Below, one piece after another: positions 15,175 to 58,367 of a DNA stretch of 64,000 nt. The notes under the pieces are model-generated. The model was not told where the DNA came from, did not search any database, and saw only the letters and a list, made by a program, of their open reading frames with translations. The first letter of the stretch is position 1. Each line of letters starts with the position of its first letter. The DNA comes from Bdellovibrionales bacterium. GTDB taxonomy: Bacteria > Bdellovibrionota > Bdellovibrionia > Bdellovibrionales > UBA1609. Location: the NCBI GenBank assembly GCA_050249195.1, contig JBFWQY010000013.1, positions 24,293 through 88,292 of the forward strand, given 5' to 3'. A program made the position numbers and the translations under genes.

Positions 15175-15196
15175 AATGAAGCCCTACTATGCCAGT

Positions 15197-20105: not shown

Positions 20106-21017
20106 ATGCAGTTTGCAGCACATGAAACATTTCACATCAGAGACGGATGGCTTCACAAAGGTCTTTCGGTAATTTCAAAAAGACCGGATATTTTTTCTGA
20201 TCCTCATGCAACCGACACTTTCGGTGTCGGTCGGAACATGGTCGATGCTTTAAGGTATTGGTTAATCGCGGCGGATCTTGCAAAAGAGGAAAAGCTCAAA
20301 GAGGGCGAAGTAAAAACCGGAAATCGGTATGGCTTTACACCGCTTGGTAAACTGCTTTTCAAAAGAGATCGCTTCATCGAAGAAGATTTAAGTCTCTGGG
20401 CTTTGCACTACCATATCGCTACGAACAAGCAAAAGGCGACGAGCTGGTATTGGTTTTTCAATAAGCTGCCCGTAACTCGCTTTGATACGCAAACTTGTCT
20501 GAATTATCTTCTTCGATGGGTTGAACAGCTTGAGGGAAAAAGAAAGCCTAACATCACTTCTCTCCAGAAGGACATCAGCTGTCTTTTAAGAACCTATACA
20601 AAGGCACATGGTAAAAGGAAATCTGATTATTCCCCTGAAGACTCATTTGAGTGCCCTTTTGCTTCTCTGGGTTTGGTTGATTATCTAGAAAACTCTGATT
20701 CCTACAAAGTAAATTACGGCAAAAGAACAATTCCCGTTCATGCTTTTGCTTATGCGGTTTTGTGTTTTATGAAGGGCTCGGAACAAGCTCGAACAGAAGT
20801 TGGCTTTCAGGATTTACTTTCTTCCGAAGGCTCTCCTGGTCGCGCATTTCTACTCTCTTCAGAGGGGCTATTGAGCAATATTGATTTAATGATTGAGTCC
20901 TTTTCGAAGGAATTCTCTTTTTCCAAAACTGCCGGACTCAACACTCTCCGATTAAGAAAGGGAGATGTTCGCGCAATTGAAATTCTTGAAAGAGGTTACA
21001 TCGGGATGGACACATGA
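20106..21017 (+). CDS. sspB: DUF4007-like protein, SspB-type (PT-system nickase candidate)
   Basis: N-terminus MQFAAHETFHIRDGWLHKG matches my memory of the DUF4007 signature (HETF.lR.GWL.K). About 300 aa. Immediately precedes the large ATPase and the PAPS-reductase-like gene. Start refined to the ATG at 20106, which has an AAGAGGGA RBS. Confidence 0.7.
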   Translation: MQFAAHETFHIRDGWLHKGLSVISKRPDIFSDPHATDTFGVGRNMVDALRYWLIAADLAKEEKLKEGEVKTGNRYGFTPLGKLLFKRDRFIEEDLSLWALHYHIATNKQKATSWYWFFNKLPVTRFDTQTCLNYLLRWVEQLEGKRKPNITSLQKDISCLLRTYTKAHGKRKSDYSPEDSFECPFASLGLVDYLENSDSYKVNYGKRTIPVHAFAYAVLCFMKGSEQARTEVGFQDLLSSEGSPGRAFLLSSEGLLSNIDLMIESFSKEFSFSKTAGLNTLRLRKGDVRAIEILERGYIGMDT

Positions 21018-24000: not shown

Positions 24001-24364
24001 GTATCTCACGGATAAGCGCGCAGCGGGACTGATTAGTAGAATTGAACAAGGGTATTCAACAGAAAATCTCTTCGTGATGAGTCTGGCCGAGCTATTCGCT
24101 GAAAAGCCGCTCAAATTTTGGAACTCTTCAAGCCTAAGCATTTTCGAAGTAAATCTACATCAGACCATTCGTTGGATGGAGGATCTGGCAGACGATATTG
24201 ACCTTGAAACTTGGCGGCACAGTTCTTCCGACAGTAGCGGTGCTGGGAAGTGGATTGAGAAGAGGGTTAGAAATCAATTCGAACGAGTTGTTCAGCGTTT
24301 AGGAAAAAAGGAAGCTAAGAAATTCGTTGAGCGTGTCATGGAAAGTCTTGGAGAAGGTCCATGA
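21014..24364 (+). CDS. sspC: Large P-loop ATPase, SspC-type
   Basis: 1116 aa. Walker A SAPYGSGKSS and Walker B LLIVWDEFGK. Position between the DUF4007 and PP-loop genes. ATGA-type overlaps at both ends. Confidence 0.7.
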   Translation: MKKQSKKNFDVRTLRSINLEMDLPEPSRLLGYVPTRKAVTLSAEILSSLIGKSNDRAFAISAPYGSGKSSAALFWCQLLELGKKPAELKVLFEEAKKKDRQSEKDESVFCQWERRKPNGLAVPIVGFDGGSIPNVIFQAILNSLERNGQGALATKLKKLPKTMDGLKHAIELVTVSSGKYDALLIVWDEFGKVLERATLQGDGKALLEIQILAEFASRSPAESPFVFCILMHQTFARYSASLPGYVRNEWAKIEGRFRQINYIEDSKEIYELISQVVSRKYGIPEEKKSVFKGLAERCHAVGMFKEFDQEALTELLWSSAPLSPVSLYLLPRVSARVAQNERTMFSFLWSEETTALPQLKRKWVAPSDIFDFFADLMRIDTSIGGAHRLWVEANSALKKIESGTEEDLVKALACIKVGTSSGSLAGTTKILEIAFGDQTEASTKKLHQAVKSLEKKKAIFHRKLTGEYSVWQGSDVDIRGAVEENKAKLVESLDLTKVLTRDFAPPYRFPQRHNDIHCIRRYFDGRYILSNELDSRVASETANNDGYLDGRIYYVIAETAEELRKAVKAAESAADDRVLFAIPQFPLHLREGLAELEAYHQLLADPDFRKQDPIVEQELKQLADDSEQHLRVLVSKIMQPSVEGPIYFWKGHAYKDVDTMGALKRLLSKVCDKNYSQTPIINNELINKAEPSPQIVNARKSIIRGIFENYGKEQLGLSGYGPDVSVFRALFLNTGIYRKQASGWSFAPKGRELENKGLSEVWQIGIDFWSKPSRVPKDLRSLLANWQSPPFGMRRGIMPLILASSFRCAGSQAQVFEDGIFVTDFKPETFERMVRTPQAFNILVPELKKDFIEFLDNVIDLFTESEKQVLSGDRIRAAAQALMVWLKDLPQIARERGMLSPVVDEFVLTLLEARDPTLLLSESLKKNWSLDSYSLVFQKIEKLKKEIEGIESSYFDKCRSTLLAAIQFGATKNLNSFYQKWIETLPGMDSDELRKRYLTDKRAAGLISRIEQGYSTENLFVMSLAELFAEKPLKFWNSSSLSIFEVNLHQTIRWMEDLADDIDLETWRHSSSDSSGAGKWIEKRVRNQFERVVQRLGKKEAKKFVERVMESLGEGP

Positions 24365-25149
24365 AGAAAACACGGCATATTCTAGGATTGTCAGGGGGCA
24401 AAGACAGTACAGCACTTGCGATCTATATGAGAGATAAAGTCCCCAATATGGAGTATGTTTTCACCGATACCGGGGCCGAACTTCCTGAAACCTACGAGTT
24501 TCTTGAAAAGCTAGAAGCATTCCTTGGAAAGAAAGTTGTACGCCTCAATGCTGAGACCGCCTTTGATGATTTGCTCGAAAGAAAAAATGGCTATCTGCCC
24601 TCGCCACGCGCCCGTTGGTGTACGGTCGCATTGAAGATCGTGCCATTTGAGAAATATGTCGGTGATGACGATGTCTACAGCTACGTCGGGATTCGTGCTG
24701 ATGAAAATCGTTCTGGTTATGTCTCATCAAAGCCAAACATTAAGCCTGTTTTTCCGTTCAAAGAAGCTGGAATCACTCTCAAAGAGGTTCAAGAGATTCT
24801 AGACACCGCAGGCGTCGGCCTTCCGAAATACTATGAATGGCGCAGTCGATCTGGATGCTACTTTTGTTTTTTTCAGCAGAGAAAAGAATGGGTTGGGTTA
24901 CTCCGTCGGCATCCTGATCTTTATGAAAAGGCCAAGGCTTACGAGAAAACCCAAGGCGATAAGAAGTTTACCTGGGTTGAGGGATCAACTCTGAAAGATG
25001 TAGAGCGCAATGCTGATGAGATCATGCGAAGAGCTGACGAGAAGGCCCTCAAAGAAGAGAAGAATAAAAAGAAGCTAACACTTTTTGAAATATTAAACTC
25101 TGAGACTGAAGACAAGAACGATCAGTCCTGCTTGATTTGCGAACTCTGA
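24361..25149 (+). CDS. sspD: PAPS-reductase-family PP-loop ATP pyrophosphatase, SspD/DndC-like
   Basis: PP-loop LGLSGGKDSTALAIYM. Conserved Cys motifs (ARWCT, SGCYFCFF, CLICE). Confidence 0.85.
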   Translation: MKKTRHILGLSGGKDSTALAIYMRDKVPNMEYVFTDTGAELPETYEFLEKLEAFLGKKVVRLNAETAFDDLLERKNGYLPSPRARWCTVALKIVPFEKYVGDDDVYSYVGIRADENRSGYVSSKPNIKPVFPFKEAGITLKEVQEILDTAGVGLPKYYEWRSRSGCYFCFFQQRKEWVGLLRRHPDLYEKAKAYEKTQGDKKFTWVEGSTLKDVERNADEIMRRADEKALKEEKNKKKLTLFEILNSETEDKNDQSCLICEL

Positions 25150-26339
25150 TGGAAATTGATGTCTCAAACTCTTTTCATAGGCAAGAAACACCCTTAGATT
25201 TCGAAGGCGTCTCTCCCTTTTATTGCGACTACAATGCGACCACTCCAATTCCATCAAAGCTCATTCGAGCAACATCAAAAATCTATGCATCCCATTGGTT
25301 TAATCTGAGTGCTCCTTATGGGTCTGCCAACGATGAAAATCAGTGGATGAATCAAATGCGGTATAAATTCTCTGCTTTATCGGGAGATCGAGAGGCAAAG
25401 GTCGTATTTTGTGCTTCATCAACAGAGGCTATTAACCAAGCGATCTACTCTCTATCGTTAGAGCTGGGGTCCGAAGGAAAGATTGTAATTTCTGACATTG
25501 AGCACTCGGCGGTTCGTGCCGCCGCTGAGAAGTGGTTTTCCAATAGAGTTGTCATTATCTCCGCGAAGCAAATTCTTTCGGGTGATTTTTCTGAGGTGGT
25601 CAGAATCACCGAGAACGCCCAATCCTTCGCAGTATTTATTCAAGCGGGCAATAACGAAACTGGCGTAATTCTTCCTCTTACAGAGCTTCGCAAGCATATA
25701 TCTGGCCATCGATTGATTGTGGACGCTTCCCAAGTATTCGGAAAGAACGAAGACTTTGTTGATCAACTCAGCATTGCTGATGGCGCGATTATTTCTCCAC
25801 ACAAATTTTACGGGCCTAAGGGTGTAGGGGTTTTGATTTGGAAAAAGAGCCTCGGCACACTCCATCCTCTGATAGTTGGAGGTGGTCAAGAACATGGACT
25901 TCGTTCGGGAACAGAAAATACTCCTGCCCTATATCTGACAAATTTGTGGTTACAAAGTCTTCCCGAAATAATGGAAGCGTTTAGTCCTGTTTCTGAGTTT
26001 TGCTCTGCTTTTGAAAAACACCTCACTGAGCATTGCCCTAACGCTAAAGTTGTTGGATCAGAATATGACCGACTCAGAAATACGACCGCAATTTGTTTTT
26101 CTGGTGTCTTGTCGGACCATATTGTTCCAGCGTTAGACTACGCAGGTATATCGGCGTCGTCGGGTTCCGCGTGTAATTACGGAACTCAAGAGCCAAGCAG
26201 AAGCTACTTATCGCTCGGTCTATCTTGGGATGATGCTCGCTGCGTGATCAGATTTTCTTTTGGATGTCCTAATCTCAAAACGACCCCCACAACTTTAGCT
26301 GACAACGTAACTCAGGTCATAAAGAAGGTTTCAGGGTAA
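25149..26339 (+). CDS. sspA: Class V aminotransferase / cysteine desulfurase (IscS/NifS/DndA-like)
   Basis: PLP-lysine motif ISPHKFYGPKGVGVL. Catalytic-Cys loop SSGSACNYG. Start taken at the ATG at 25149 (TGATG overlap with sspD). The ORF track's alternative TTG start is at 25137. Confidence 0.85.
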   Translation: MEIDVSNSFHRQETPLDFEGVSPFYCDYNATTPIPSKLIRATSKIYASHWFNLSAPYGSANDENQWMNQMRYKFSALSGDREAKVVFCASSTEAINQAIYSLSLELGSEGKIVISDIEHSAVRAAAEKWFSNRVVIISAKQILSGDFSEVVRITENAQSFAVFIQAGNNETGVILPLTELRKHISGHRLIVDASQVFGKNEDFVDQLSIADGAIISPHKFYGPKGVGVLIWKKSLGTLHPLIVGGGQEHGLRSGTENTPALYLTNLWLQSLPEIMEAFSPVSEFCSAFEKHLTEHCPNAKVVGSEYDRLRNTTAICFSGVLSDHIVPALDYAGISASSGSACNYGTQEPSRSYLSLGLSWDDARCVIRFSFGCPNLKTTPTTLADNVTQVIKKVSG

Positions 26340-27781
26340 TGATGGCGGCTTCGGAAATTCGCAATCATAGGCATAAGACCGCTATGAGGCGAAATGCCCT
26401 CTCCCGTCCAGTTAGTGCAGCAATCAAGGATAGAGTTCTTAAGCCACAGAAATCATTTTTTGACTATGGATGTGGCTATGGCTCTGACATTGAAATTTTG
26501 AAAGCTAGTGGCTTTGCGCCAAGTGGGTGGGATCCATTTTACTTTCCGAAAAATCAAAAGGTTTCCTCTGAAATAGTAAACCTCGGCTTTGTCTTAAATG
26601 TCATTGAGGACCCCAACGAACGTGCTTCGGTTTTGAAGGATGCTTTCGACTTAGCGACCGAGTGTCTTATTGCATCCGTTAGAATCGATTCGGCCTTCTT
26701 CGAAGATTGTTTTGGCGATGGTGCAATCACTAAAGATGGGACTTTCCAAAAAATCTATTCTCAAGCTGAGTTCAGGGCATTTGTTGAATCTATTCTTGGA
26801 AAGAAAATCTACTTTACTGAGCCAGGAATCGGGTATGTCTTTAAATCAGACGTTCTTGAGCATGAGTTTAAGTCGAACCGCTACCTAAATCGACTCACCA
26901 ACCATGACGAAGCAATTCTTAAGAAAATTCAGGAAGCAATTGATGCCGATAAAATTGCCCGCCTAATTGAAGATTTAGGCAGAATTCCTGGGCCTGGCGA
27001 AATATCGGAATTGGCCTTTCTTGGTAAGAAAAAGTTCAAAGACTTCATTGAATCGACAGTTCTTCCGTCGCTTAACAAGGAACGATTTGAATCCAGTCGT
27101 GAGAGAATTCGACAGGATCTCTTGCAGGCTTTGGCGATGACCCGCATTGAGAATAGATCCTTCATGCCTCAAAAGGAATTGTCGGCTGAATTTCAGCAGG
27201 CCGTTAAAGAAATGTTCGGAGAGTATCGGGAAGCATGTCGTCTTTCTGAAGAAATGCTTTTCCGTTTAGGTAAAGAAGGGGAAGTTTCAAAGGCCGCCAA
27301 GTCTTCTGTTGTTGGAAAGCTTCTCCCAGAAGACCTTTACGTCCATCGAAGTGCTGTTGAATATATTCCTGGTCTTTTGAAGCTCATGCTTTCTTTGGGG
27401 GAAAGCATTGTTGGGCGAGCCAACTCCGACTTAATCAAATTCAGTCTTCATGGAAAGAGCATGAGTTTCCTCTTTTATGGAAGCTTTGACGAGGATCCCC
27501 ACCCTGCACTTCAGGGAAGCATTCGTGTGGATTTCCGAACCGGAAAAAATCAAGTTCGGGACTATTCGAAATCTGAGAATTCACCAATACTGCATCGTAA
27601 AGAAACCTTAGTGCTACCCTCTTATGAGCACTACGAAAGATTTAAAAAATTAACGGAACAGGAAGAGGCCGCAGGACTTCTTGGAGGTGCAGGCATCGGT
27701 TTCCGTAAACAATGGGATGAGCTTCTAAAGCAGTCTGGTTACTTTCTTGATGGCCACACTCTAAAGACGCTCTTGTCATAA
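26339..27781 (+). CDS. SAM-dependent methyltransferase-like protein (resembles the 'DNA phosphorothioation-associated putative methyltransferase' family) with a long C-terminal extension
   Basis: 480 aa. Motif I FFDYGCGYGSDI, then GWDP and NLGFVLNVIED. No DPPY/NPPY/SPPY motif. N-terminus RHKTAMRRNALSRP matches my memory of that family. Overlaps the sspA stop. Confidence 0.65.
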   Translation: MMAASEIRNHRHKTAMRRNALSRPVSAAIKDRVLKPQKSFFDYGCGYGSDIEILKASGFAPSGWDPFYFPKNQKVSSEIVNLGFVLNVIEDPNERASVLKDAFDLATECLIASVRIDSAFFEDCFGDGAITKDGTFQKIYSQAEFRAFVESILGKKIYFTEPGIGYVFKSDVLEHEFKSNRYLNRLTNHDEAILKKIQEAIDADKIARLIEDLGRIPGPGEISELAFLGKKKFKDFIESTVLPSLNKERFESSRERIRQDLLQALAMTRIENRSFMPQKELSAEFQQAVKEMFGEYREACRLSEEMLFRLGKEGEVSKAAKSSVVGKLLPEDLYVHRSAVEYIPGLLKLMLSLGESIVGRANSDLIKFSLHGKSMSFLFYGSFDEDPHPALQGSIRVDFRTGKNQVRDYSKSENSPILHRKETLVLPSYEHYERFKKLTEQEEAAGLLGGAGIGFRKQWDELLKQSGYFLDGHTLKTLLS

Positions 27782-28047: not shown

Positions 28048-28891
28048 TTTAGCTTCTCCTTTATTTTTTCGATTGAACACATAGCGTTGTCAGGATCTCA
28101 ATTCAATTAACACAACGTAGTAGAAACCCCTTTTGAAAAAAATGTGGCGCGGATTTGAGAGAGGGATGCCACCGGAAAAAACGAAAATTTTCCCCATTTT
28201 CCGTGATAGGGGTGGGGGTCTATCCCTTTGATTCGTCTACACTAAGCCAACTGAGACCCGCCTCGTGCGTCTGCTTGCGCTTCTCGCGCCCGATAGTCGC
28301 CACGATCCGCGTACTTGCCTTGCTCCACTACGGGACTCCTTAACTTCGAATATAGGCGCATACTTAGTCTTAGGCTTGATGATGTCCGCAAATAGGTAAA
28401 AGCGGACGTACTACTTGCGCGACACCTTTGGGGAATCTGTGGCGACTCTGTCGTTATGCCCTTGGCTGACCACCGAGTAGTCGATCTCTATTGGGACTTT
28501 TTCCTGGGCCGTCCTAGAAAAAGACTCTCCCGAATAGGACGCCAGGTAACCCAAACCAACCCCCGTCCACGCGGCCTTCAACTCTAACACCCAAGTCTTA
28601 GCGACCTTAACCAATCGTAAAGGCTGACCTATTTACCCACTTGAATACGCTGGGCATTTTAGTTTTAATCCCTAAGCATAGTGTTGGGGTTAGCGCCGTC
28701 TTACCCTATGGCGAGCCGTTACCAACCGTTTTCTATCCGAACCACTTTAGTCTTAACTCAACACCCATTTAAGATTCCGACAGATAGCCCGACGTTAGGC
28801 CCGCTCGTATGCAGCAGCGCAATAGGAATCGCGTGGACAAGTTGGTGGATAATGCTCACAACTCCGGCAAATGTCAGGGCCGTGTTTGGCT

Positions 28892-29131
28892 TTATAGCGC
28901 CGTCTCCGGTTGTGAGGCGGGTCGATCTACCCTGATGAGCTTTGAGGCGTGAATTAGGGCGTCTGTGGCGGTTAGGCTTTGAATATTTGGGTCAGTCGAG
29001 AGGCGCTTCACCGCCTCGGCTATCTCCTGGACTATGGCTCGACGCTCCATCGGTAAGTAGAAGTGTGTGCCATAGCCGTCGTTGTGGACGGAGACTCGCT
29101 GGCTACAGACTTCGCATAAGCGCATTTGCAT
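28892..29131 (-). CDS. Phage hypothetical protein (79 aa)
   Basis: ORF only. Last minus-strand ORF of the phage early block. Confidence 0.35.
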   Translation of the reverse strand: MQMRLCEVCSQRVSVHNDGYGTHFYLPMERRAIVQEIAEAVKRLSTDPNIQSLTATDALIHASKLIRVDRPASQPETAL

Positions 29132-29244
29132 TGGGATCCTCTAGAACAACAGTTCAATCAAACTAAGACTTAAGAAAACTAAAACCGTAAGGCCGATAGA
29201 AACTAAGACGTAAGCTGTGAGTCTTCCCCACTCAAAAGGCGGCA

Positions 29245-29445
29245 TCAGTAAAACCCTTCAAATAACATTTCGACTCGACCGCACTTCTTACAGGTGGCGT
29301 TTGGTTGTTTCTTAAGACCACTCATTTCTGAAACCTCGATGGTCTTATCAGCTTTGACAAACCTTCCGCACTTCTCACAAACCGGAACGAAGACCGCACC
29401 GCCCTCGTAAGTAATGCGTCTGACGTTTTCATATTCTCCATCCAT
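29245..29445 (-). CDS. Phage zinc-ribbon protein (66 aa)
   Basis: Two CxxC pairs (CEKCGR ... CKKCGR). Confidence 0.5.
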   Translation of the reverse strand: MDGEYENVRRITYEGGAVFVPVCEKCGRFVKADKTIEVSEMSGLKKQPNATCKKCGRVEMLFEGFY

Positions 29446-38909: not shown

Positions 38910-39817
38910 TTCTTTAACCCTCCTTTAAGAGCATTTTTGATCCAGCGTTGAATGTCCTGTTTGGATCCGATAGCGGTCGGCTTTCGCGTGTAACCGAGAA
39001 GTCCCGGCATAATGAGAAGGTCGCGGTATTTCAGGCGCATGACGAGGTTCGGATCTTTTTTGAATTTTGGAATCAGGCTTTCGAGTTTTTTCCGTCTGAC
39101 TTCTCGTTCAGCGTATTTTTCAGCGTGAGCGGTCATGGGCCGATTGACTGGTTTTTTTGACAGAAAATGATTCCCCTTAAGCGCGGCCTTCTTTGGACCG
39201 CTGAGTGGTTCTTCATCTTCCTCGTCGAAATCATCTTCTTCGGTGTCTTCTTCAAAGTCGGAGCCTTCTTCTTCTGACGAATCATCCTCCTCGGACATCT
39301 CATCTTCCAATTCACGGTCTTCGGATTCCTCGGCATCTTCGTCTGCATCGTCTTCCTCGATTTCGTCTACGTCGTTACCCTCATCCTCGTCGTTGGCTTC
39401 TTCCTCATTTTCTTCCGCAAGCAAATCGTCAGCAGCATCATCCTCTGATTCATCCTCATTAAAATCGTCGAGATCATCGACGGGCTTTGCTTTTTTTGGA
39501 GTTGAATATTCAGGATCGAGATCAGAGAGGTCGCTGGCTTCCATTTCAGGTTCGACAAAATCGAGACTCTTGCCACAGACGGGACAATCTTTAAGTCCCA
39601 AATGAACATTGCTTCCGCAATTTGGGCATCCTCCCCATTGCTCGGACTCATTTCCCATTCGTTGAATCACTTCGGTGACTCGCCCGCGATATTCTGCAAG
39701 TGGAACTGTTCGCTTTGAAACTTCGAGTAGAAAATCCAGAAGACTGAACTTGTCTCCAACGGGAATTGGAACCTTGTGTTTCCTGCAAAAATCTCCGAGC
39801 CCTTTAACTGTGTTCAT
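38906..39817 (-). CDS. Zinc-ribbon protein with an extreme D/E-rich central tract (about 115 aa) and a basic C-terminus
   Basis: CPNCGS...CPVCGK, then DDLDDFNEDESEDDAADDLLAEENEEEANDEDEGNDVDEIEEDDADEDAEESEDRELEDEMSEEDDSSEEEGSDFEEDTEEDDFDEEDEE. GGAGG RBS. First large gene of the early operon. Confidence 0.6.
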   Translation of the reverse strand: MNTVKGLGDFCRKHKVPIPVGDKFSLLDFLLEVSKRTVPLAEYRGRVTEVIQRMGNESEQWGGCPNCGSNVHLGLKDCPVCGKSLDFVEPEMEASDLSDLDPEYSTPKKAKPVDDLDDFNEDESEDDAADDLLAEENEEEANDEDEGNDVDEIEEDDADEDAEESEDRELEDEMSEEDDSSEEEGSDFEEDTEEDDFDEEDEEPLSGPKKAALKGNHFLSKKPVNRPMTAHAEKYAEREVRRKKLESLIPKFKKDPNLVMRLKYRDLLIMPGLLGYTRKPTAIGSKQDIQRWIKNALKGGLKK

Positions 39818-40082
39818 CGTGCGACCTCCTCTAATTTGGTGTGAATTAAAAAATTCCCAGAGCCAAACGATCTAAGAGTTGGGCGTTGGCACTCCACATT
39901 CCTCATGGAGTTCTCTTCAGATCGCTGGCTCTGGGCGGGGATGGAGGGACTGCGGAGCGAGATAATTAAAGACTTAATGCTGGTCTTAGTTTTAGTATTA
40001 AATCCAAGACTAAGATTGTTGTTAACAACAAACGATTTCTTCATTTCCCCTCTCACGATCCTCATCCCCTTCAAGGTTGAGC

Positions 40083-40112
40083 GTTGTAAGTGACACTTAA
40101 AATTTGTGTCAA
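40083..40112 (-). promoter_or_regulatory. Candidate sigma70-type early promoter (TTGACA-N18-TACAAC, minus strand)
   Basis: Read on the minus strand: TTGACA at 40112-40107 and TACAAC at 40088-40083. It points toward the early operon. Confidence 0.3.
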
Positions 40113-40232
40113 ATTACTAATTGCATTTTCTTCAAAAAAAGTGAGTTGCAGCTCCATTTCATGATCGATCTCTCATGCAAATCTCGATTGGTTTAGGTGA
40201 ACAATGGTTTTTCACAACGTAGTTTTCCATTG

Positions 40233-40439
40233 CTAAGACCCGCTGTTTTTTCCGTTTAAGAGATCAAGAAGTGTTAAATCCCCATTCACTAATATCCACG
40301 TTCCCTTCGGACTTAGTGTTTGGTTAACCGCTTGTAGGAGGTGATGAAGTTTGAGGTCCTCATTCAGCGAGAGCCACCCTTCGGGGAGTGCCTCTCGAAT
40401 CAATGCGAATACTTTCTCGACTTCTTCTCTCTCGCTCAT
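40233..40439 (-). CDS. Small phage protein (68 aa)
   Basis: Start chosen at MSEREEVEK (40439) because the ORF-track N-terminal extension (TTG at 40580) has no RBS and contains a promoter-like palindrome. Confidence 0.45.
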   Translation of the reverse strand: MSEREEVEKVFALIREALPEGWLSLNEDLKLHHLLQAVNQTLSPKGTWILVNGDLTLLDLLNGKNSGS

Positions 40440-40460
40440 CTCACTTATTTCCTTATCAAC

Positions 40461-40477
40461 GTGATACATTGTATCAC
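40461..40477 (-). promoter_or_regulatory. 17-bp near-palindrome, copy 1 (minus strand GTGATACAATGTATCAC; extended -10 TGATACAAT)
   Basis: Exact string read from the sequence and cross-checked against overlapping ORF translations. Lies 21 nt upstream of the 40439 start. Confidence 0.6.
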
Positions 40478-40664
40478 CTATAAACAGAAAAGTGAAAAGG
40501 GTAAAATTGAAAAAGCGAAATTTGAAATGTCGCGCCAGCTCCCTGGATGGAGAGCGCACTGCCTGCGAATTTGGCTTCAACTATATATTGGGGTGATAAA
40601 TCTTAGGTGGATTCTTAGTCTTAGTGTTGGGTTTAAGCCTAAAACAAAGACTTTGACAGTCTTA

Positions 40665-40681
40665 GTGTTACATTGTATCAC
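40665..40681. promoter_or_regulatory. 17-bp near-palindrome, copy 2 (minus strand GTGATACAATGTAACAC), overlapping a plus-strand TTGACA-N17-TATCAC promoter
   Basis: TTGACA at 40653-40658 and TATCAC at 40676-40681 (plus strand). The minus-strand TACAAT at 40677-40672 overlaps that -10. Lies 28 nt upstream of the plus-strand ATG at 40710. Confidence 0.55.
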
Positions 40682-40709
40682 TTTTATTAAACCTGCATGG
40701 AGTGAAACG

Positions 40710-41168
40710 ATGGCAAAGCCAAAAAACGAAGATTGGGAATTGGGAGAGCAGTGGGAAAGTTTTCGGGTAAAGGAGAGCGATGACCTGATGGCCCTTTTGA
40801 GTGATGTCGAGGGGAATCGTGGGGAGTTCATCCGTAACGCCCTTTTGAAATTCTATGAAGGGAAACTTCTCATCGATTGTCCAACTTGTGAGGGCGAAGG
40901 TCAGATTTATAGCGGCAGCGGTAAAGGACAGACCCCCTCCAAAAAGAAGGGTAAGGACGGCAAAAGTAAGGTGTTCACCTTTAGATCCGACAGCGGACTC
41001 CGGAAGGATCTCGCAAAGGCCAAAGACAAGGGTGAGACCATTAAGATGTCGCTTGCTGTAGCACTATCAAAGGAGCACGTCTTGGAATGTCCGACTTGCC
41101 GGGGCGTTGGCAAAATTATTGGTGGCCCAAAACTTAGAAAATCAGTGCTGGCTAAGTTTTCGACTTAG
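40710..41168 (+). CDS. RHH-like DNA-binding protein with two DnaJ-type CxxCxGxG zinc-finger motifs (candidate prophage regulator)
   Basis: 152 aa starting at MAKPKNEDWE. RGEFIRNALLKFYEG resembles a CopG/Arc RHH helix. CPTCEGEGQ and CPTCRGVGK are CxxCxGxG repeats. GGAG RBS. Confidence 0.55.
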   Translation: MAKPKNEDWELGEQWESFRVKESDDLMALLSDVEGNRGEFIRNALLKFYEGKLLIDCPTCEGEGQIYSGSGKGQTPSKKKGKDGKSKVFTFRSDSGLRKDLAKAKDKGETIKMSLAVALSKEHVLECPTCRGVGKIIGGPKLRKSVLAKFST

Positions 41169-41220: not shown

Positions 41221-42273
41221 ATGGACGAGATTATCATTATTGCGACCTGCCTATTTTTGAATGCTCTTTTTGCGGCCTATGAGATGGCGTTTGTTTCTAT
41301 CCCAAGATCAGAACTTCGAGCATTAGCAAAGGCCGGAAACAAGGATGCCAAAACACTTCTATCGCTGAGAGAAAGCCCAGAAAGAACCCTCTCCGTAATT
41401 CAAATCGGAATCACCCTAGTGGGCGCAGTTGCCGCTGCTATCGGCGGAGCTGGGGCCGGAGAAACCATTGAGCCTTATTTTAGACAAACTTATGGCATGC
41501 CGGAGAGAACTGCCGAAGCTCTGTCGGTTATACTTGTCGTTCTTCCGATCACATATATGAGCGTGGTCGTCGGAGAGCTTGTGCCCAAGACGCTTGCGCT
41601 CAGAAACCCTGCAAAGATAGTCCTGGCAGGCGCAAGGATCCTTTTTTTCGCTGATCGATTTCTCTCGCCAGTGATCACCACCCTAGAGTGGTCTACTAAA
41701 AAGATATTGAAAGTCTTTTTTCGCAAATCGAAGATGGCTCCACCTTCAGAAAATGCACCAATCGAAATTGATAGCTTCTCGCCCGTACATCAAAAATTCA
41801 TGCTTAACATGGCGGGTATTGAGAAGAAAAATACCAGGGACATTCTTCTGCCTTGGCCGCAGGTCATTTCAATTAAAAAATCAGCTACAATAGATGAAGT
41901 CACACAGGCTGTTGTAAGTTCGGGGCATACACGGCTGCCAGTAAAAGATGACGGTCAAGTAGCAGGGGTATTGCACACGAAAGAATTTATTGCGCTCAAA
42001 GAATCCGGTGAAGTTAATTGGCAAAGTATTATTCGTCCCGCTCTGACCGTACAGCCAACGGATTCGGCCTTGGGGGTTATGCGTTTACTCCAAGATAAAA
42101 GATACCACATGGCAATCGTCGCACTGCCATCGGGCGAGAGACTTGGAATTGTAACTTTGGAAGATATTCTCGAAGAAATTGTAGGTGATATTTTTGATGA
42201 AGACGACGACGACCGTGTGCGAAGAGTTTTTGCAGCAAAAATCAAGTCACGAGTCGTCCCGAAAGAGGAGTAA
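41221..42273 (+). CDS. CNNM/DUF21 transmembrane domain plus CBS-pair protein (TlyC/CorB-like), no CorC_HlyC tail
   Basis: 350 aa. The N-terminus IIIIATCLFLNALFAAYEMAFVSIPRSELRAL is typical of DUF21. CBS-like C-terminal half (GHTRLPV...MAIVALPSGERLGIVTLEDILEEIVGDIFDE). Confidence 0.8.
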   Translation: MDEIIIIATCLFLNALFAAYEMAFVSIPRSELRALAKAGNKDAKTLLSLRESPERTLSVIQIGITLVGAVAAAIGGAGAGETIEPYFRQTYGMPERTAEALSVILVVLPITYMSVVVGELVPKTLALRNPAKIVLAGARILFFADRFLSPVITTLEWSTKKILKVFFRKSKMAPPSENAPIEIDSFSPVHQKFMLNMAGIEKKNTRDILLPWPQVISIKKSATIDEVTQAVVSSGHTRLPVKDDGQVAGVLHTKEFIALKESGEVNWQSIIRPALTVQPTDSALGVMRLLQDKRYHMAIVALPSGERLGIVTLEDILEEIVGDIFDEDDDDRVRRVFAAKIKSRVVPKEE

Positions 42274-42339: not shown

Positions 42340-42567
42340 TTAATAATTCTTACGAGTGTGACTTGGGCACGAGCATACAGGCTGTGGTGGCAGCGGGATC
42401 TCTTTCATCGGATGGTTTTTTCCGGCACGGCAGAAAGGACATCGATACATTGAACTTGTTCCTTCCGCTTCGTTTTTAACCCAAATTAACCCCTCATTTT
42501 CGCAGTATTTGCAGACAGTTTTTTGTTTATCTTTCATCTTCATCATTTCGATGTATGAGGCAAACAT
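42340..42567 (-). CDS. Zinc-ribbon protein (75 aa)
   Basis: CKYC...CPFC pairs. Confidence 0.45.
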   Translation of the reverse strand: MFASYIEMMKMKDKQKTVCKYCENEGLIWVKNEAEGTSSMYRCPFCRAGKNHPMKEIPLPPQPVCSCPSHTRKNY

Positions 42568-42950: not shown

Positions 42951-43268
42951 ATGTCAATCCGCAAACACTTACCGCCTCGTTCTAAAGACGCGTACACGAG
43001 CCTTCAGGTCAAAATGGAGACCTCGGTCGTCGACGAGGTTAAATCTTTTATGAAAATCGATGGGATTTCATGGAACGACCTGCTCACGGCGTGTTTCACG
43101 AAATACCTGGAAGAGTCACGAGTGGTTCACGGCGAGAAAAAGAAAGAACAGGAAGAAGCCGCTAAGAAAAAGATCAACTCAACTCTTCTGGGCATCGTTA
43201 CTATAGTCAGTCTTTGTGAAAGTCCAATACTTCAGATCGTTTTCGATCTTAGCGACTATATTGCGTAA
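42951..43268 (+). CDS. Small protein, RHH-like N-terminus, hydrophobic C-terminus (105 aa)
   Basis: Start refined to MSIRKHLPP, which has an AAAGGAAA RBS. The VDEVKSFMKIDGISWNDLLTACFTKYLEE pattern is RHH-like. Weak call. Confidence 0.35.
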   Translation: MSIRKHLPPRSKDAYTSLQVKMETSVVDEVKSFMKIDGISWNDLLTACFTKYLEESRVVHGEKKKEQEEAAKKKINSTLLGIVTIVSLCESPILQIVFDLSDYIA

Positions 43269-43401: not shown

Positions 43402-44082
43402 CTACAAACCATTTTCCGTAAACTCAAAATGCATCGGATCTTTTCTCTTAAAATTCCCGCCCCAATAAAAGCCTTCTGATTCAAAAATCTCGACGATCTC
43501 AGAATTCATGTCTCCATCCGCACCAAGAGGATTTGTTTTAGCGTTATGATCAACTGCAATTCCCCACGAGTGCATAGAGAGCTTTTTTGCTCCCCTCGTG
43601 TAGCGAAGATTATAACACCCATCAAATGAGTAGAGTTTGTCTGACAAGTCGGCATGAACAATGGCCTGATAGATATTCTGGAAAAACTGAATCAAAAGTT
43701 TATTGCACCAGAAACCATGCTTTTCGTCCTTCTGGTAGGTAAAGACGTGGTTAAGTTCCGGTGGGGTTTCGCAGAAGCCGCCATAAGCCTTCCAATATCC
43801 ACTTTCAAGAGGATCTCCGAACAGTTTGTAGAGTTCATCTCGTGACCGAGGAACAACCAGTTCAGGAATGTGCGGATTCGTATTGGGAAAAAGTTTTTCC
43901 CAAGTGACAGGACCGACTACTCCGTCGGCGTTGATCTTGTTTCTGATTTGAAATTCAACGACCGCCAATTTTGTATTGTTACCAAAAATGCCATCTACTT
44001 TACCGATGGGATGTCCCAACTGCTTTAATGTCTGTTGGATCTTTTGAACGTCTTCACTTCGTGAACCTATTTTGAAAATCAT
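43402..44082 (-). CDS. Endolysin: PG_binding_1 domain plus M15-family (VanY/D-Ala-D-Ala carboxypeptidase-like) peptidase
   Basis: GSRSEDVQKIQQTLKQLGHPIGKVDGIFGNNTKLAVVEFQ is the PG-binding repeat. SMHSWGIAVDHN and DPMHFE are the M15 metal ligands. Confidence 0.85.
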   Translation of the reverse strand: MIFKIGSRSEDVQKIQQTLKQLGHPIGKVDGIFGNNTKLAVVEFQIRNKINADGVVGPVTWEKLFPNTNPHIPELVVPRSRDELYKLFGDPLESGYWKAYGGFCETPPELNHVFTYQKDEKHGFWCNKLLIQFFQNIYQAIVHADLSDKLYSFDGCYNLRYTRGAKKLSMHSWGIAVDHNAKTNPLGADGDMNSEIVEIFESEGFYWGGNFKRKDPMHFEFTENGL

Positions 44083-45143
44083 AGATCTACTCCAGTGAAG
44101 GCCGACTCTGGCTCTTCTGAAAAGTGATTAAAAAGTGGTGCATCAGAAATGATTTTTGACCGTGCAAGCTCGACGTATTCAGGATTAAGTTCGACTCCAA
44201 CGAAACTACGATTGTGCTTTAGGGAAACGACTCCGGTGGTGCCGGATCCACAAAAGGGATCAAGTATGGTGCCGCCACTTGGACATCCCGCAAGGATGCA
44301 AGGTTCGATAAGCTTTTCAGGGAAGACAGCAAAATGAGCGTCGCTTGAACAAGCTGTGCTGACGGTCCATACGGATCTTTTATTTCGCCCATCTTCTAAG
44401 TAACTGCCATCATCTTCTCGTCCAGAATGAAGGCGTGTTCCATAGCCTGAATGCTTATTTCGACCACCAAAAACCGCTTTCATGGGGCCATTGGTTTTCC
44501 CCGGCACTCTTGAGCTGCCTTCTTGATGTTCAATATCTTGTGAAAGTCGTTGAACCGTAGACTCGGCGACGGGCTCTTTGATGGCGTCGTTGTCAAAATA
44601 ATATCTGGGCGATTTGCTTAGAAGAAAAAGATATTCGTGCGCCTTCGTGCAGCGATCCTGTACTGATTCGGGCATCGCATTGGACTTGGACCAGATAATG
44701 TCTTGCCTCAAATACCAACCTTGCGCTTGCAGGGCGAAGGCGACACGCCAGGGAATACCGACAAGGTCCTTGGGTTTTAGAATGGAATGAAACTTCAACG
44801 CTCCTTTGAATCCTATTCCAGAAACGGATCCAGCTCCGCGATTGGATTTCTGCTTTCGACTAACTTCTTTGGTATTTCCACGGTTATTGCCACCACCATA
44901 GTATGTGTCGCCAAGATTCAGCCAAAGAGTTCCTTTAGGCTTTAGGATCCTCCGAATTTCCTCAAAAATGACGGATAAATTTTGAACGTACTCTTCTGGA
45001 GTGGACTCTAAACCAAGCTGATCTTCCGCCTTGTAGTCGCGGAGGCCCCAATAGGGAGGAGAAGTTATACAACAATCAATGGATGAATTCGGAAGACTCT
45101 TAAGAATGCCTTGGCATTTGCCACTAAGAATCTTCCATCCCAT
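44079..45143 (-). CDS. DNA methyltransferase, N4/N6 family (beta class), no cognate nuclease seen
   Basis: Motif IV TSPPYWGLRDY is near the N-terminus and motif I ILDPFCGSGTTGVV is near the C-terminus. SPPY favours N4-cytosine but cannot exclude N6-adenine. Confidence 0.85.
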   Translation of the reverse strand: MGWKILSGKCQGILKSLPNSSIDCCITSPPYWGLRDYKAEDQLGLESTPEEYVQNLSVIFEEIRRILKPKGTLWLNLGDTYYGGGNNRGNTKEVSRKQKSNRGAGSVSGIGFKGALKFHSILKPKDLVGIPWRVAFALQAQGWYLRQDIIWSKSNAMPESVQDRCTKAHEYLFLLSKSPRYYFDNDAIKEPVAESTVQRLSQDIEHQEGSSRVPGKTNGPMKAVFGGRNKHSGYGTRLHSGREDDGSYLEDGRNKRSVWTVSTACSSDAHFAVFPEKLIEPCILAGCPSGGTILDPFCGSGTTGVVSLKHNRSFVGVELNPEYVELARSKIISDAPLFNHFSEEPESAFTGVDL

Positions 45144-46163: not shown

Positions 46164-46180
46164 GTGATACATTGTATCAC
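46164..46180 (-). promoter_or_regulatory. 17-bp near-palindrome, copy 3, with an upstream TTGACT -35 (strong sigma70-like promoter)
   Basis: Minus strand reads TTGACT-N16-TACAAT with a TG extension: ...TTTGACTGATTTTCATTATGTGATACAATGTATCAC. Confidence 0.65.
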
Positions 46181-47231: not shown

Positions 47232-47248
47232 GTGTTACATTGTATCAC
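47232..47248 (-). promoter_or_regulatory. 17-bp near-palindrome, copy 4 (minus strand GTGATACAATGTAACAC)
   Basis: Lies 17 nt upstream of the 47214 start. String cross-checked via the overlapping ORF translation (RVTLYH). Confidence 0.6.
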
Positions 47249-52497: not shown

Positions 52498-55400
52498 TTA
52501 GTCGTCCGTGAACGAATACTGATTATCCGTTCCATTGTTCGTGACCGTTGACGCAGCAGTGATCCAATTGTCAGTGGCCCGATTTTTATTCCCGTTGAAA
52601 ATTACGTTGCCCGTCACTTTTAGATTCTTGAAGAGGTTCGCATTGCCATTGATCGTGAGGGCTCCATTTAGGACTGAGCCATTTCCTTTGCCTTCAAGAA
52701 AAAGCTGACTCTTCGTCCAAACCACTGCTCCGACAACTGTCGTTGCGAGAAGAAAAATCTTTCCAGGAGTTGATAGGAAGTCATGAGCTTGCTGGATCGA
52801 ACTAAAATCAGCTTTGCCGTTAGCAACGTCGAGTGCTGATCCGACAATCACGTCAGCAAATGCAGCAATTCGTAAGGCGTTTTGATCTTTCGTGTCTAGA
52901 GTTCCCTGGCGTCTCAAAGCGTGAATACTGACCACAGAGGTTGTGAGGTCTTCAGAAAATCGAATTCTGTTCGTTCCCACTTCTCTGTAAAAGAGCGTTT
53001 TGGCAGGATCAAGCCCAGCGTAATATCGCGGTATCTCAAGACCTTCGACAATTACGGTAAGGTCTCCGTTAGGCTTCCCAAGATTCAAGTTGGGAACGAA
53101 TGAGAACCCTAATTCAACTTCGCTGACGTTTAAACTAAGTGGGACGTCAAAGACGGTCGAAATTCCTAAGATACCATTGGCATTTGAACTGTCGCTAATG
53201 ATGAACCCTGAGTCGATGTATCCGCCATTATTGAACCCTTCGAGTTCATAGATACTTGCTTTGTAATTCAAAAGATTTGCGGCAGTAGTGACAACGTCGC
53301 TCGTTGGACTACAGAAGAATACAAAAAAGCATCGCTCGTTGTTTGTAGAAGTGGGAAAGACGACTTTCGGCAGAGTGCCCGAAGCTACAGGTCGCTCCAC
53401 AGCTTGTGAAAATGTTGAAGAGAGGGGTTGATTCAGATCCGTCACAAGTCCTGAACTTGACCCGGCGACCGCAATCCGCGATGCCTGATCCAGATCAGGG
53501 AACATATCGTTTGCGGCGAGGCTATCCTCATAGCGCACAACCGCTTCCAGCAGATCTCTTGGACCAAAGATTTTTGAGAATGGTAGATTATCGAGGAGGC
53601 CCGTCGGATCGCCTAGATTGACAAGATCCTTAGTCCACACGGCTTGAGAGAACATGATCGGAGCAACCGTGAAGACTTGCGAGAAGGGCGTATCAATAAC
53701 GTAATCGGTAGGGCCTTGAATAATTGTGATCCGTCGAAATTCTGGTGCGGTAACTTGCTCAAACAGTTCATAGAAGAGAACGCTTGTGCTATCAGCTAAT
53801 GACCACACTGAACCGTCGTAAATGTATCTAGCCTGGCCAGAGCCTGAACTGTCTCGAAGAATTCGGATCACATTTCCTGAAACAAAACCGGAAATGTAAG
53901 TTGTGTCAGCTTCGAACACGAGAAATTTAAGACCGGAAAGCGACTGGTTTTGAACATTCAGACTAAAAGCCGTGACTCCAAGCCCAAATGAACTTGCAGG
54001 AATTGTCATGGACGCAATGACGTCGAGAGGGTTGGTCGAAGGAAGACCGCTTATTGAATGCACCAATTTTACGACAACATTGCCGACAGGGTTTCCGTCG
54101 CGGAATCCTTTGATGACAATCTTGTTGATCTTTTGCCCTGTAAAATTGAAGTCGCCAGCGATCCCTCTTTGTGTCGTATTGTTAAGATCGTCTCCGCCGT
54201 TTTGTACAGTTTGATTGACGGTCCTAACTACGCCTGGCCAATAAACGATGTCTCCAACCTGAAGAGTGAATGAAGGAACACCGCTGGGAGTGATCTTGTG
54301 ATCGCCAGGCACTCCGTCTGTGAGAGTAGATATACTTGGTGTAACCACATCTTGACCCGGCACTCTTGGAACCTCGGCGGGAAAATTTGCTGTATGTTTT
54401 ACAGTTCTAAAGAGCTGAAGGTCATCGTAAGATCCAGACATCGACTCGGTAGCATCGTGCTTAGACCCAAGTGACATTGTGCTGTTGAAGAATAGGAAGT
54501 TTTGATCGCTCGTAAGATTAACGGCGGCTGATCCGATTAAAAGTCCATTGACGAAAAAGCGTTGGACATTTGTGACGTAGTCATAATCGAATTCGATTTC
54601 ATAGGTCTGGCCATTCACTATTGTCGGGAAGTTACCGAAGTTCGTGTTGAAAATATTGTTGCTGGAGTCAACCGAGGTTACTTGAACAATACCAGTCGTC
54701 GCCAATAGTCTCAGCGTAATTTCAGATTGGTTTCCTGTATCCTTGGCTCCAAACCATGATTTGTTAGTTACAGGAAAACCGCTGAAATCAGGAATCCACT
54801 TGAATCGAATGGTTCCGATATCATCATTGAGCCCTTGACCGAAGTTGGCGTACTGAGCGCGGCCACCGCCTCCAGGAACATTAAGGCGGTTTGATGAGAT
54901 CGTCGCACCGCCAGTTAAGACTCTCGCGGGAGCGCCAGCAGCAAAGTCAGCATTCGTAGAGGCGTTAACAAAAGTGTCTCTGAAAGTTTCATCAACTGTA
55001 GAAAGAACCCGTGGAATTTCACCTGTAAAGTTAGCGGTGTGCTGTATGGTCTTAAAGATTTGCAAGTCATCAAACTGGAAGTTGCCAGAAAAGTTCCCGT
55101 TCCCATCAGAGCCAAGAACAAAGTTCGCACTTACCGTATAGCTGGCACTTCGAGAGATAGTGCCCGTGTGAGTGGATCCGACCTGCACACCATTGACAAA
55201 AAGTCTTTGAGCGCCTGAGACAAAGTCGTAACTGAACTCCACCTCGCATTCAACTCCAGGGGTAACGCTTGGAATACCGAAGTTCGAATTGATATTTGTA
55301 AAACCAACGCTGTCGAATGCTTGATAAGTGAGTGCCCCGGAAGGTTGGCGTTGTAATGTCAGAGCATTTTCTGCAGCAGGTTCTCTCGCCTCGAACAACA

Positions 55401-58350: not shown

Positions 58351-58367
58351 GTGATACATTGTATCAC
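58351..58367 (-). promoter_or_regulatory. 17-bp near-palindrome, copy 5 (minus strand GTGATACAATGTATCAC)
   Basis: Lies 24 nt upstream of the giant-fibre ATG at 58326, in the only 68-bp gap within the baseplate-fibre block. Confidence 0.6.

Follow-up and report, generated by a model that had tools for sequence, protein, structure and literature searches.

What controls the region between two diverging transcription units in a prophage of a Bdellovibrionales bacterium? The question is raised by a 64-kb window of contig JBFWQY010000013.1 (the window being the whole stretch of DNA analysed, 64,000 nt, numbered from its first letter). Within it, the interval 40440-40710 separates an early operon on the minus strand from the plus-strand gene of a 152-amino-acid (aa) protein, and holds two copies of a 17-bp palindrome, here called A and B. 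An earlier, sequence-only reading had placed a candidate lysis/lysogeny switch at copy B, where back-to-back promoters with -10 boxes on the same base pairs would make binding of RNA polymerase mutually exclusive. Our evidence consists of sequence anatomy, copy statistics, conservation and co-variation across lineages. It indicates that the interval is very likely the immunity-type control region of a temperate phage in a Bdellovibrionales-like chromosome, and that the palindrome probably binds a phage-encoded zinc protein with two ribbon-helix-helix (RHH) motifs rather than acting by promoter competition alone.

A 17-bp palindrome recurs upstream of minus-strand operons

The palindrome reads GTG[A/T]TACATTGTATCAC, with 8-base arms around one central base (GTGATACA-T-TGTATCAC), and is present five times in the window. 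A search with GTGATACATTGTATCAC at up to three mismatches found loci at 40461, 40665, 46164, 47232 and 58351, against 0.06 expected from shuffled sequences, and the generalised pattern GTNNTACANTGTANNAC recovers the identical five sites and no others. At four of the five copies a minus-strand start codon follows after 17-24 nt, with a Shine-Dalgarno sequence in the gap. From palindrome A (40461-40477, GTGATACA-T-TGTATCAC), a proposed operator, it is 21 nt to the ATG at 40439, and this interval contains the ribosome-binding site AAGGAAA. The copy at 46164-46180 stands 17 nt upstream of a TTG start (46146) that opens a unit for a 143-aa protein, a DNA methylase and an endolysin. The copy at 47232-47248 carries the arm variant GTGTTAC and precedes the ATG (47214) of a set of small membrane protein genes by 17 nt, and that at 58351-58367 precedes by 24 nt the ATG (58326) of a 1942-aa protein, with the tail/fibre block behind it. 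The fifth, palindrome B (40665-40681, GTGTTACA-T-TGTATCAC, one arm variant), faces the divergent 152-aa gene from 28 nt upstream and is proposed to be an autoregulatory operator; its start is 204 bp from that of A, a distance that the sequence-only reading had given correctly. Two of the five copies have an arm mismatch (T opposite T).

The same site is found in a prophage 85% identical to ours on an uncultured Pseudobdellovibrionaceae contig, CAZYOE010000006.1 (L029, L026, L013, L024 and L016), which holds nine copies in like positions; the additional ones precede capsid, protease/scaffold and terminase genes and a ParB-methylase gene adjoining the integrase. The palindrome is therefore regulon-wide (five copies in the window, nine in this relative) rather than specific to the site of the presumed switch. 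What stands of that proposal is the anatomy beneath it, namely a divergent region with overlapping promoter cores between a lytic operon and an opposed regulator gene.

Exact matches to the 17-mer in genome contigs number 29, of which only five, all on one contig of a Pseudobdellovibrionaceae metagenome-assembled genome, are related; the other 24 are isolated, scattered matches that we take to be chance. Among viral contigs, L048, L038 and L077 carry the 17-mer within a repeated intergenic element, AT-rich and with a T-run after it, that belongs to an unrelated phage; they were rejected as unrelated. In a distant phage, IMGVR_UViG_3300048836_000758 (L039, L060, L075, L078), GTGTTACAWTGTAACAC occurs at least four times upstream of minus-strand genes; in the parts examined a single protein of this phage is similar to one of ours, at 63% identity to a 614-aa protein (C-terminal 350 residues).

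The palindrome is very likely a promoter core

All four lytic-operon copies (40476, 46179, 47247 and 58366) carry the extended -10 element TGATACAAT (TGnTACAAT) on the gene strand, and TGTTACATT is on the plus strand at 40666. Across the 128 kb of strand in the window, TGnTAnnnT occurs at 12 sites, 10 of them inside the five palindromes, where a TG-extended -10 can be read on both strands. In 4 of 4 lytic copies here and in 7 of 8 in the 85%-identical relative, the central base is the one that lets TACAAT be read on the gene strand. Since a -10 box would select for this orientation and a symmetric binding protein would not, the palindrome is very likely a promoter core. Its perfect 17-bp symmetry, which a promoter does not explain, points in addition to a dimeric ligand.

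At palindrome A the TG-extended -10 TGATACAAT (hexamer 40473-40468) completes a putative early promoter on the minus strand, TTCACT (40496-40491)-N17-TG-n-TACAAT, with 9 of 12 matches in the promoter scan. Its -35 belongs to a block (40478-40545) with phased T-tracts resembling an UP element or curved DNA, which is near-identical in close relatives and recognisable still in L030 and L033. The main early promoter would accordingly be at copy A, not at copy B. The minus-strand copy at 46164 also has a good -35 (TTGACT-N16-TG-n-TACAAT), and no -35 is evident at 47232 or 58351.

On the plus strand, the perfect -35 TTGACA (40653-40658) of the regulator-gene promoter is where the sequence-only reading put it, and it is invariant in six relatives and kept as TTGAC[A/T/G] in four remote lineages (L080, L081/L082, L083 and L084). 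In the 64 kb only 12 sites have at least 10 of 12 matches to TTGACA-N16-18-TATAAT, three of them within 40.0-40.7 kb, and one is the plus-strand site of the sequence-only reading. Less certain is its -10. The earlier choice, TATCAC at 40676-40681, is indeed there, 17 nt after TTGACA, but it is a poor -10, with C at position 6 in place of the final conserved T, and the promoter scan that scored the early promoter makes no call on it. A rival within palindrome B, TG-T-TACATT (40666-40674), keeps the critical A and T of an extended -10 and has TTGACA only 10 nt upstream. The remote lineages bear on this choice. In L080, L081 and L084 the palindrome follows TTGACN by 14 nt, as against 6 in the window, and in L083 it is 14 bp further from TTGAC than in the window, so that the TTGACA-N17-TATCAC geometry is not conserved at that distance. 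Because the 14-nt arrangement places the central TAC..T hexamer at N18, it suggests that the central hexamer is the ancestral -10, for which the window lineage compensates through TG. Whichever plus-strand -10 serves, palindrome B spans the -10 and start region, and a protein bound there would close the promoter and thereby provide autoregulation.

The opposed, minus-strand element at copy B fares less well. The hexamer TACAAT occupies 40677-40672 within TGATACAAT, the complement of 40680-40672, exactly as had been read. The two -10 hexamers share, however, only 2 bp (40676-40677) rather than the same base pairs, and only the polymerase footprints would overlap more broadly. Moreover, palindrome B has T at its centre in the window and in L029, L030, L034 and L073 but A in L032 and L033, so that TACAAT faces the minus strand in some relatives and the 152-aa gene in others. 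A -10 whose direction flips in this way is without consistent selection, and the minus-facing TACAAT that the switch would need at copy B is not a conserved feature.

The control region is conserved as a unit

Six relatives, 70-86% identical overall, were aligned into a comparative footprint of the interval 40440-40710, in which two near-invariant blocks stand out. One extends from the minus-strand ATG across palindrome A and some 65 nt of phased T-tracts; the other comprises an array of TCTTAG boxes, TTGACA and palindrome B. Palindrome A is identical in L029, L032, L034, L073 and L030, and the GTGTTAC arm variant is a constant feature of copy B. By contrast with these blocks, the central spacer (40546-40603) is conserved in neither sequence nor length, and the 5' untranslated region of the 152-aa gene varies except for GGAG. 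The distance between the palindromes ranges from 176 to 364 bp across relatives with no common phase, and helical phasing between them, as looping might call for, was rejected as a conserved feature.

A GC-rich hairpin followed by a U-rich tract (40535-40575, minus strand) lies between the palindromes and may terminate minus-strand transcripts from copy B or upstream read-through. A hairpin of differing sequence occurs there in every relative, with a stability like that of shuffled sequences (z -1.7 to +0.4), and a terminator scan makes no call. Neither Rfam at gathering thresholds nor ARAGORN (tRNA and tmRNA) has a match anywhere in the window, so the spacer is not a known RNA.

The same layout is kept in the related prophages: a small minus-strand gene, palindrome A, a variable spacer, TCTTAG boxes around TTGAC, palindrome B and the regulator gene. 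Palindromes, TTGACA and repeats are conserved together as a unit, both in remote relatives and in a degraded prophage remnant, L030/L031 (L030 9371-9690). In the remnant, which lies among integrases, a relaxase, toxin genes, and PIN and HEPN/NTase genes, the first gene of the early operon (68 aa) is truncated and abuts an OmpR-type winged-helix fragment, while both palindromes and the 152-aa gene are intact, as expected of a retained immunity repressor.

Palindrome arms co-vary with the adjoining 152-aa protein

The 152-aa gene, a candidate repressor gene, occupies 40699-41168 on the plus strand with GGAG at 40699-40702 and its ATG at 40710. Its product has 12 close homologues (71-93% identity), and a HMMER scan of 1.84 billion cluster representatives added seven remote ones (31-45% identity). 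For every homologue with an upstream region available, near or remote, a palindrome lies 28-40 nt upstream of the ATG.

Next to the remote homologues these palindromes have the form GT-NN-TACA-N-TGTA-NN-AC. Lineage L080 (homologue P0014) has GTCA[C/T]AC-AAT-GTATGAC; L081/L082 (P0015) has GTATTAC-A[G/C]T-GTAATAC; L083 (P0016) has GTAATAC...GTAGGAC and GTATTAC...GTATGAC; and L084 (P0017) has GTACTAC-N3-GTAGTAC in three copies, one of them 3.4 kb off before another operon. The single-repeat homologue P0019, in L086, adjoins GTTATAC-CCC-GTATAAC, with TTGACA and no TCTTAG boxes in its control region. Fixed across lineages are GT, TACA/TGTA and AC; positions 3-4 of the half-site and their mirror images change together, largely symmetrically. 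These positions differ among six lineages and within a lineage are the same or A/T variants, and in L084, the sole remote lineage with a visible copy outside the control region, that distant copy matches at NN.

A symmetric, lineage-specific change beside the 152-aa gene is what a phage-encoded operator/regulator pair would produce, and it points to the palindrome and the 152-aa protein as such a pair with lineage-specific immunity, which would be hard to reconcile with a host factor. The protein itself is the most divergent of three conserved proteins of the module (31-45% identity, against 48-56% and 45-52% for the others), and its putative DNA-reading strands differ between lineages. The symmetric changes at positions 3-4 also bear on the logic of the switch as first proposed: they implicate a dimeric or pseudo-dimeric binder, and a repressor regulon fits the data better than exclusion between polymerases alone.

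The 152-aa protein resembles a tandem ribbon-helix-helix protein

The 152-aa protein is an internal duplication, each half consisting of a strand, two helices and a CPTCxGxG zinc knuckle, and the four cysteines and surrounding glycines are invariant in the family alignment. Pfam matches only the zinc knuckles (TMEM106_N, DnaJ_CXXCXGXG, Anti-TRAP), with RHH_1 below threshold (E ~0.13) over the strand and first helix in repeat 1 of P0016 and repeat 2 of P0017. An AlphaFold2 model from an 18-sequence alignment places strand-helix-helix units at residues 11-21, 25-31 and 37-49 and at 86-94, 95-103 and 107-119, with a predicted local distance difference test score (pLDDT) of 65-73 in these parts and 56.6 overall; an earlier prediction of this type, from 13 sequences, was too poor for use (pLDDT 42.7).

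When the model was compared with the PDB by Foldseek, the 11 best of 13 matches were to chains E, F and G from entries for the F-plasmid relaxosome, at E-values of 0.24-5.3 (0.24-1.6 for the top matches) and probabilities of up to 0.90. These matches have TM scores of 0.41-0.56 at 14-18% identity, for a model with pLDDT 56.6, and a profile search of the PDB with the 152-aa protein found nothing significant. We read chains E, F and G as TraY (PMC12117103). A single-chain tandem RHH pseudo-dimer with a zinc clasp between the repeats is thus moderately supported, and a pair of these molecules, bound to half-sites with centres 10 bp apart, would span the 17-mer.

The family appears to be narrow. 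A tblastn search with the 152-aa protein against 50,697 phage records gave no match, so that no cultured phage in INPHARED carries the regulator, and a megablast of 36-48 kb against the same records was likewise without a match. An alignment search with the protein found the known near relative alone in viral contigs and nothing in JGI metagenome contigs. A repressor of the helix-turn-helix or S24 type was not found with Pfam and PHROGs among the larger prophage open reading frames (ORFs) here or in the additional 15 kb of the relative; for Pfam, small ORFs were concatenated with linkers, and EBV-NA1 matches falling on the linker were spurious.

TCTTAG boxes suggest a second control input

Upstream of palindrome B lies an array of TCTTAG boxes (40613-40669). 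The sequence-only reading had correctly located a 12-bp direct repeat, AGTCTTAGTGTT, at 40617-40628 and 40658-40669 (spacing 41); the two belong to a larger set with a further direct unit at 40613-40618 and a degenerate inverted unit at 40641-40652, and the -35 TTGACA is flanked by the units at 40641-40652 and 40658-40669. Boxes of the form (G)GTCTTAG beside TTGAC are kept in L080, L081/L082, L083 and L084 despite their differing palindromes. A second cluster, an inverted pair at 39983-40017, lies about 640 bp from the first on the far side of the early promoter; its sequence, GTCTTAGTTTTAGTGTTAAATC.AAGACTAA, does not change among five relatives, and the window and L029 each have a single variable base.

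The plus strand carries a second small gene (42951-43268) whose product looks RHH-like by eye (MSIRKHLP...LQVKME...). The putative strand LQVKME is conserved across remote lineages; Pfam gives no significant match for the protein, so the fold is read from the sequence pattern. This conservation suggests that the TCTTAG boxes are a second control input and that their likely ligand is the 42951-43268 protein.

Two further stretches carry features of this kind. A highly conserved segment of 416 bp inside the early operon (39817-40233), in which relatives have no called gene, may serve as an internal promoter, as an origin or as a further operator cluster bracketing the early promoter. Besides the inverted TCTTAG pair it holds a minus-strand TTGACA-N18-TACAAC (40112-40083) with a final C in place of T, as in TATCAC. 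At the left end of the prophage, about 1.1 kb of higher G+C content (28080-29245) has no convincing ORF and no Rfam, tRNA or tmRNA match. It contains four GTCTTAG motifs (28367, 28595, 29163 and 29203) and may be an attachment-site region or a cluster of binding sites.

Alternative explanations

That copy B works by competition between polymerases, with phage proteins only biasing the choice between plus and minus promoters that share a -10 region, is in our judgement unlikely. Both promoter cores are where this explanation needs them, TTGACA is invariant, polymerase footprints would overlap, and the minus-strand core at copy B is identical to the cores, likewise without a -35, before the tail and membrane-protein operons. 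Yet the central base flips among close relatives, TATCAC is without the final T, the hexamers overlap by only 2-3 bp and the distance from -35 to palindrome differs by 8-14 bp in remote relatives. A full early promoter is moreover already present at copy A, 204 bp downstream, possibly with a hairpin and U-tract between the copies, and competition leaves unexplained both the arm co-variation and the same 17-mer before every other operon. An assignment with the ligands exchanged, in which the palindrome would be the target of the 68-aa protein, the 42951-43268 protein or a 75-aa zinc-ribbon protein of the same module and the TCTTAG boxes that of the 152-aa protein, strikes us as similarly improbable. 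The two direct and one inverted TCTTAG units beside the 152-aa gene do resemble the site of a TraY train (PMC12117103), and linkage cannot discriminate, as all four small genes keep their positions together. But the TCTTAG boxes are invariant while the strand residues of the 152-aa protein vary, the LQVKME strand of the second RHH-like protein and the 68-aa protein are conserved, and the single-repeat homologue P0019 has the palindrome and no TCTTAG boxes.

We give still less weight to the palindrome being a host LexA box through which LexA silences the prophage directly, the 152-aa protein being a co-factor or having some other role. The precedent is the Bacillus temperate phage GIL01, which is reportedly LexA-controlled, with no CI-like repressor and with SOS boxes at one promoter region. 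As in GIL01, no CI-like or S24-type repressor was found among the prophage ORFs searched, and the window core [A/T]TAC-ATT-GTA[T/A] resembles the host-clade LexA motif, TTAC-N3-GTAA in B. bacteriovorus (PMC8565304). It is exactly TTACATTGTAA in L033 and in IMGVR_UViG_3300048836_000758, a phage that keeps the motif with one matched protein at 63% identity. Against the eight defining bases, however, three window copies (ATAC...GTAT, two mismatches) match at 6 and two at 7; all eight match in L033, L081 and one distant phage, and 6 in all three copies of L084 (CTAC...GTAG). Most window copies thus deviate from the LexA core, and, unlike in GIL01, the site stands before every operon. Its flanks (GTG/CAC, GTA/TAC, GTC/GAC) are palindromic, lineage-specific and co-vary with a phage protein, which would be unexpected for a host factor with an 11-bp site. 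Least probable of all, and very much so, is that the palindrome acts as a nucleic-acid hairpin, either as a promoter for an N4-type virion RNA polymerase, for which a stem of 5-7 bp and a 3-nt loop are typical, or as an RNA-processing or translational hairpin 5' of the ribosome-binding site. A 7-bp stem with a 3-nt loop can form, the arm changes are symmetric, the position relative to the ribosome-binding site is fixed, and the 1942-aa protein without detectable homology is encoded directly downstream of one copy. Pairing is nevertheless broken in two of the five copies, positions 1-2 and 5-8 are invariant in sequence across lineages and not merely complementary, and the copies have sigma-70 features (TG and TAnnnT, with a -35 at two copies), an AT-rich stem and no U-tract. 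No RNA polymerase domain was detected in any ORF, and the copies precede early, structural and lysis genes alike.

Several points weigh against the repressor reading that we prefer to these. Its co-variation rests on about six lineages, and the 68-aa and other module genes travel with the 152-aa gene, which makes the ligand assignment non-exclusive; symmetric arm changes would also preserve a hairpin equally well. The structure model is of low confidence (mean pLDDT 56.6), and Foldseek E-values of 0.24 and above are not significant alone. Some copies match the published Bdellovibrio LexA motif. TTGACA stands 10 nt from the central hexamer of the palindrome in the window lineage, leaving two candidates for the -10 of the regulator promoter, and direct repression of early, structural and lysis operons would leave their temporal ordering unexplained. 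Promoter activity, the assignment of protein to site, repression by binding and the choice of plus-strand -10 are what we infer from these sequences.

A proposed repressor regulon and its relation to known systems

In the arrangement that we favour, the palindrome would be an operator physically containing the -10 of a host sigma-70-type promoter, TG-extended in the window lineage, with one copy per lytic unit: 40461 for replication and recombination, 46164 for lysis and methylase, 47232 for membrane proteins and 58351 for the tail, with more before head and packaging genes beyond the window. In the lysogen, the plus-strand promoter would yield the 152-aa protein together with a CNNM/CBS protein encoded downstream; the plus-strand orientation and the insertion of this downstream cargo fit lysogenic expression of the 152-aa gene. 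Bound as one molecule to each half-site, the 152-aa protein would keep RNA polymerase off all lytic promoters and, at higher concentration, would fill the variant copy B and limit its own synthesis. On its loss all operons would be freed, the promoters bearing a -35 (the early one and that at 46164) firing most strongly. The overlap of opposed -10 cores would then be a by-product of having the -10 within a palindrome; it may add competition at copy B and is not needed to account for the data. To this whole, namely an operator holding the -10 of every lytic promoter, the 152-aa protein as repressor, autoregulation at copy B and a second TCTTAG input, we would give an even chance.

A logic of this kind is known from P22 immI, from lambda OR and from the operators spread over the genomes of phiC31, P1 and L5, and the parts are new. 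In P22 immI the RHH repressors Mnt and Arc act at overlapping divergent promoters, Pant and Pmnt, with a 17-bp symmetric operator; each forms its own homo-oligomer, with a single RHH per chain and without zinc, and the operators occur once only. The window region is alike in having putative small RHH-type regulators by divergent promoters and a proposed operator that overlaps a lytic promoter and would affect the regulator's own opposed promoter. It differs in that the proposed operator stands before every operon seen, the protein is predicted to have two RHH motifs per chain plus zinc, and Pfam shows no Arc or Mnt match. The repressor of the Streptomyces phage phiC31 (17-bp inverted repeats), P1 C1 with its operators and gp71 of mycobacteriophage L5 with its stoperators each pair one repressor with many dispersed sites, many of which overlap promoters. 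The many copies of a short conserved site across the window phage, overlapping promoters, recall these systems, whereas their repressors are helix-turn-helix proteins or of other folds and the sites of L5 and P1 are asymmetric. The phiC31 sites lie mainly in the early region; those in the window are also at structural and lysis operons, with the -10 inside.

Lambda OR combines PR and PRM with CI, Cro and three adjacent 17-bp operators. The window shares with it a divergent lytic/lysogenic pair, 17-bp operators and a variant, presumably weaker operator on the side of the repressor gene, suggestive of autoregulation, but its two operators are about 200 bp apart with no conserved helical phasing (176-364 bp), and no helix-turn-helix CI or Cro was found among the ORFs searched. 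TraY of the F plasmid has two RHH motifs per chain, which form a pseudo-dimer, and assembles as trains on short direct and inverted repeats (PMC12117103). It is the only structural neighbour found for the low-confidence 152-aa model, with which it would have in common tandem RHH motifs in one polypeptide and short direct and inverted repeats as targets; unlike the 152-aa protein, it lacks CxxC zinc knuckles and serves the relaxosome at oriT as an accessory protein instead of regulating a phage.

What appears new is a narrow, unannotated family of tandem-RHH zinc proteins, an operator doubling as the -10 of every lytic promoter seen, and a two-base specificity code with natural variants. Possibly, and we advance this tentatively, the phages of Bdellovibrionota/Oligoflexia hold a previously undescribed class of immunity. 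This would combine a double-RHH repressor with a split four-cysteine zinc site, an operator that is the -10 of every lytic promoter, early, structural and lysis alike, through which a single protein would directly gate the entire lytic programme, half-site specificity set by two base pairs, and invariant TCTTAG clusters 640 bp apart that bracket the early promoter, where a conserved second RHH protein would add a layer of control independent of lineage, perhaps with a DNA loop. To our knowledge, the temperate phages of predatory and related Bdellovibrionota are almost unstudied. If the proposal is true, they would offer a compact and testable repressor/operator pair with an apparently simple code and natural variants in hand, useful for the study of DNA reading by single-chain RHH proteins and as orthogonal genetic parts. 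The same operator-promoter at every lytic operon seen would also be an unusual regulatory economy compared with a lambda-like cascade.

Genomic context of the prophage

The window is a Gram-negative chromosome with a prophage that extends from about 28.9 kb to beyond 64 kb, almost all of it on the minus strand. The early operon, read from 40439, encodes in order the 68-aa protein, a zinc-ribbon protein, a Sak4-like AAA_24 ATPase, a RecE-like exonuclease, a replication initiator, a primase, a DnaB helicase, a 5'-3' exonuclease and a PD-(D/E)XK nuclease. Its first product, an acidic protein of 68 aa (40233-40439), has no Pfam or PHROG match; the position of the gene is kept in all relatives, with homologues of 45-76% identity at the same place in L033, L034, L083 and L084. 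In L029 a 2-nt indel just upstream of its ATG marks the upstream open frame as non-coding. From 42.3 to 64 kb the minus strand encodes the endolysin, DNA methylase, small membrane proteins, fibre-like proteins, the 1942-aa protein and baseplate proteins.

The plus strand of the window carries only three prophage genes (40710-41168, 41221-42273 and 42951-43268). The second encodes a CorC/HlyC-like protein with a CNNM domain (Pfam, 3.3e-39) and a CBS pair (1e-13) that belongs to PHROG 10948. It is found in this prophage only and is absent from the position in L029, L032, L033, L034 and L073; in five relatives the regulator gene is followed directly by a convergent zinc-ribbon gene, which in the window is the 75-aa gene at 42340-42567 (minus strand), whose position is kept in remote relatives as well. 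The CNNM/CBS gene is likely a cargo gene (moron), presumably co-transcribed with the regulator from the lysogenic promoter. Proteins of the CNNM/CorC family are generally linked to divalent-cation transport, and the gene's place on the putative lysogenic transcript would make it a candidate lysogenic-conversion function.

Other observations concern single genes and the flanking chromosome. The 1942-aa protein (52498-58326), encoded between baseplate and fibre-like genes and conserved in a relative at 1941 aa, is without a match in Pfam, PHROGs or the PDB sequences. An N6_N4_Mtase gene (44079-45143) is present in the window, L033 and L034 and absent in L029, L032 and L073. A DNA methyltransferase with an N-terminal ParB fusion (L016 4764-6020) adjoins the integrase in the 85%-identical relative, and its ATG follows the palindrome by 3 nt, so its mRNA may be leaderless. 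Outside the prophage, 1-13 kb encodes efflux pumps and a TetR regulator, and a defence island adjoins the prophage at 14407-27781. The island comprises DUF4007, a 1116-aa protein, and PAPS-reductase-like and class-V aminotransferase/cysteine-desulfurase genes, resembling phosphorothioation systems of the Ssp/Dnd type, with PLD-like, helicase, HATPase_c_3 and PD-(D/E)XK genes on the opposite strand.

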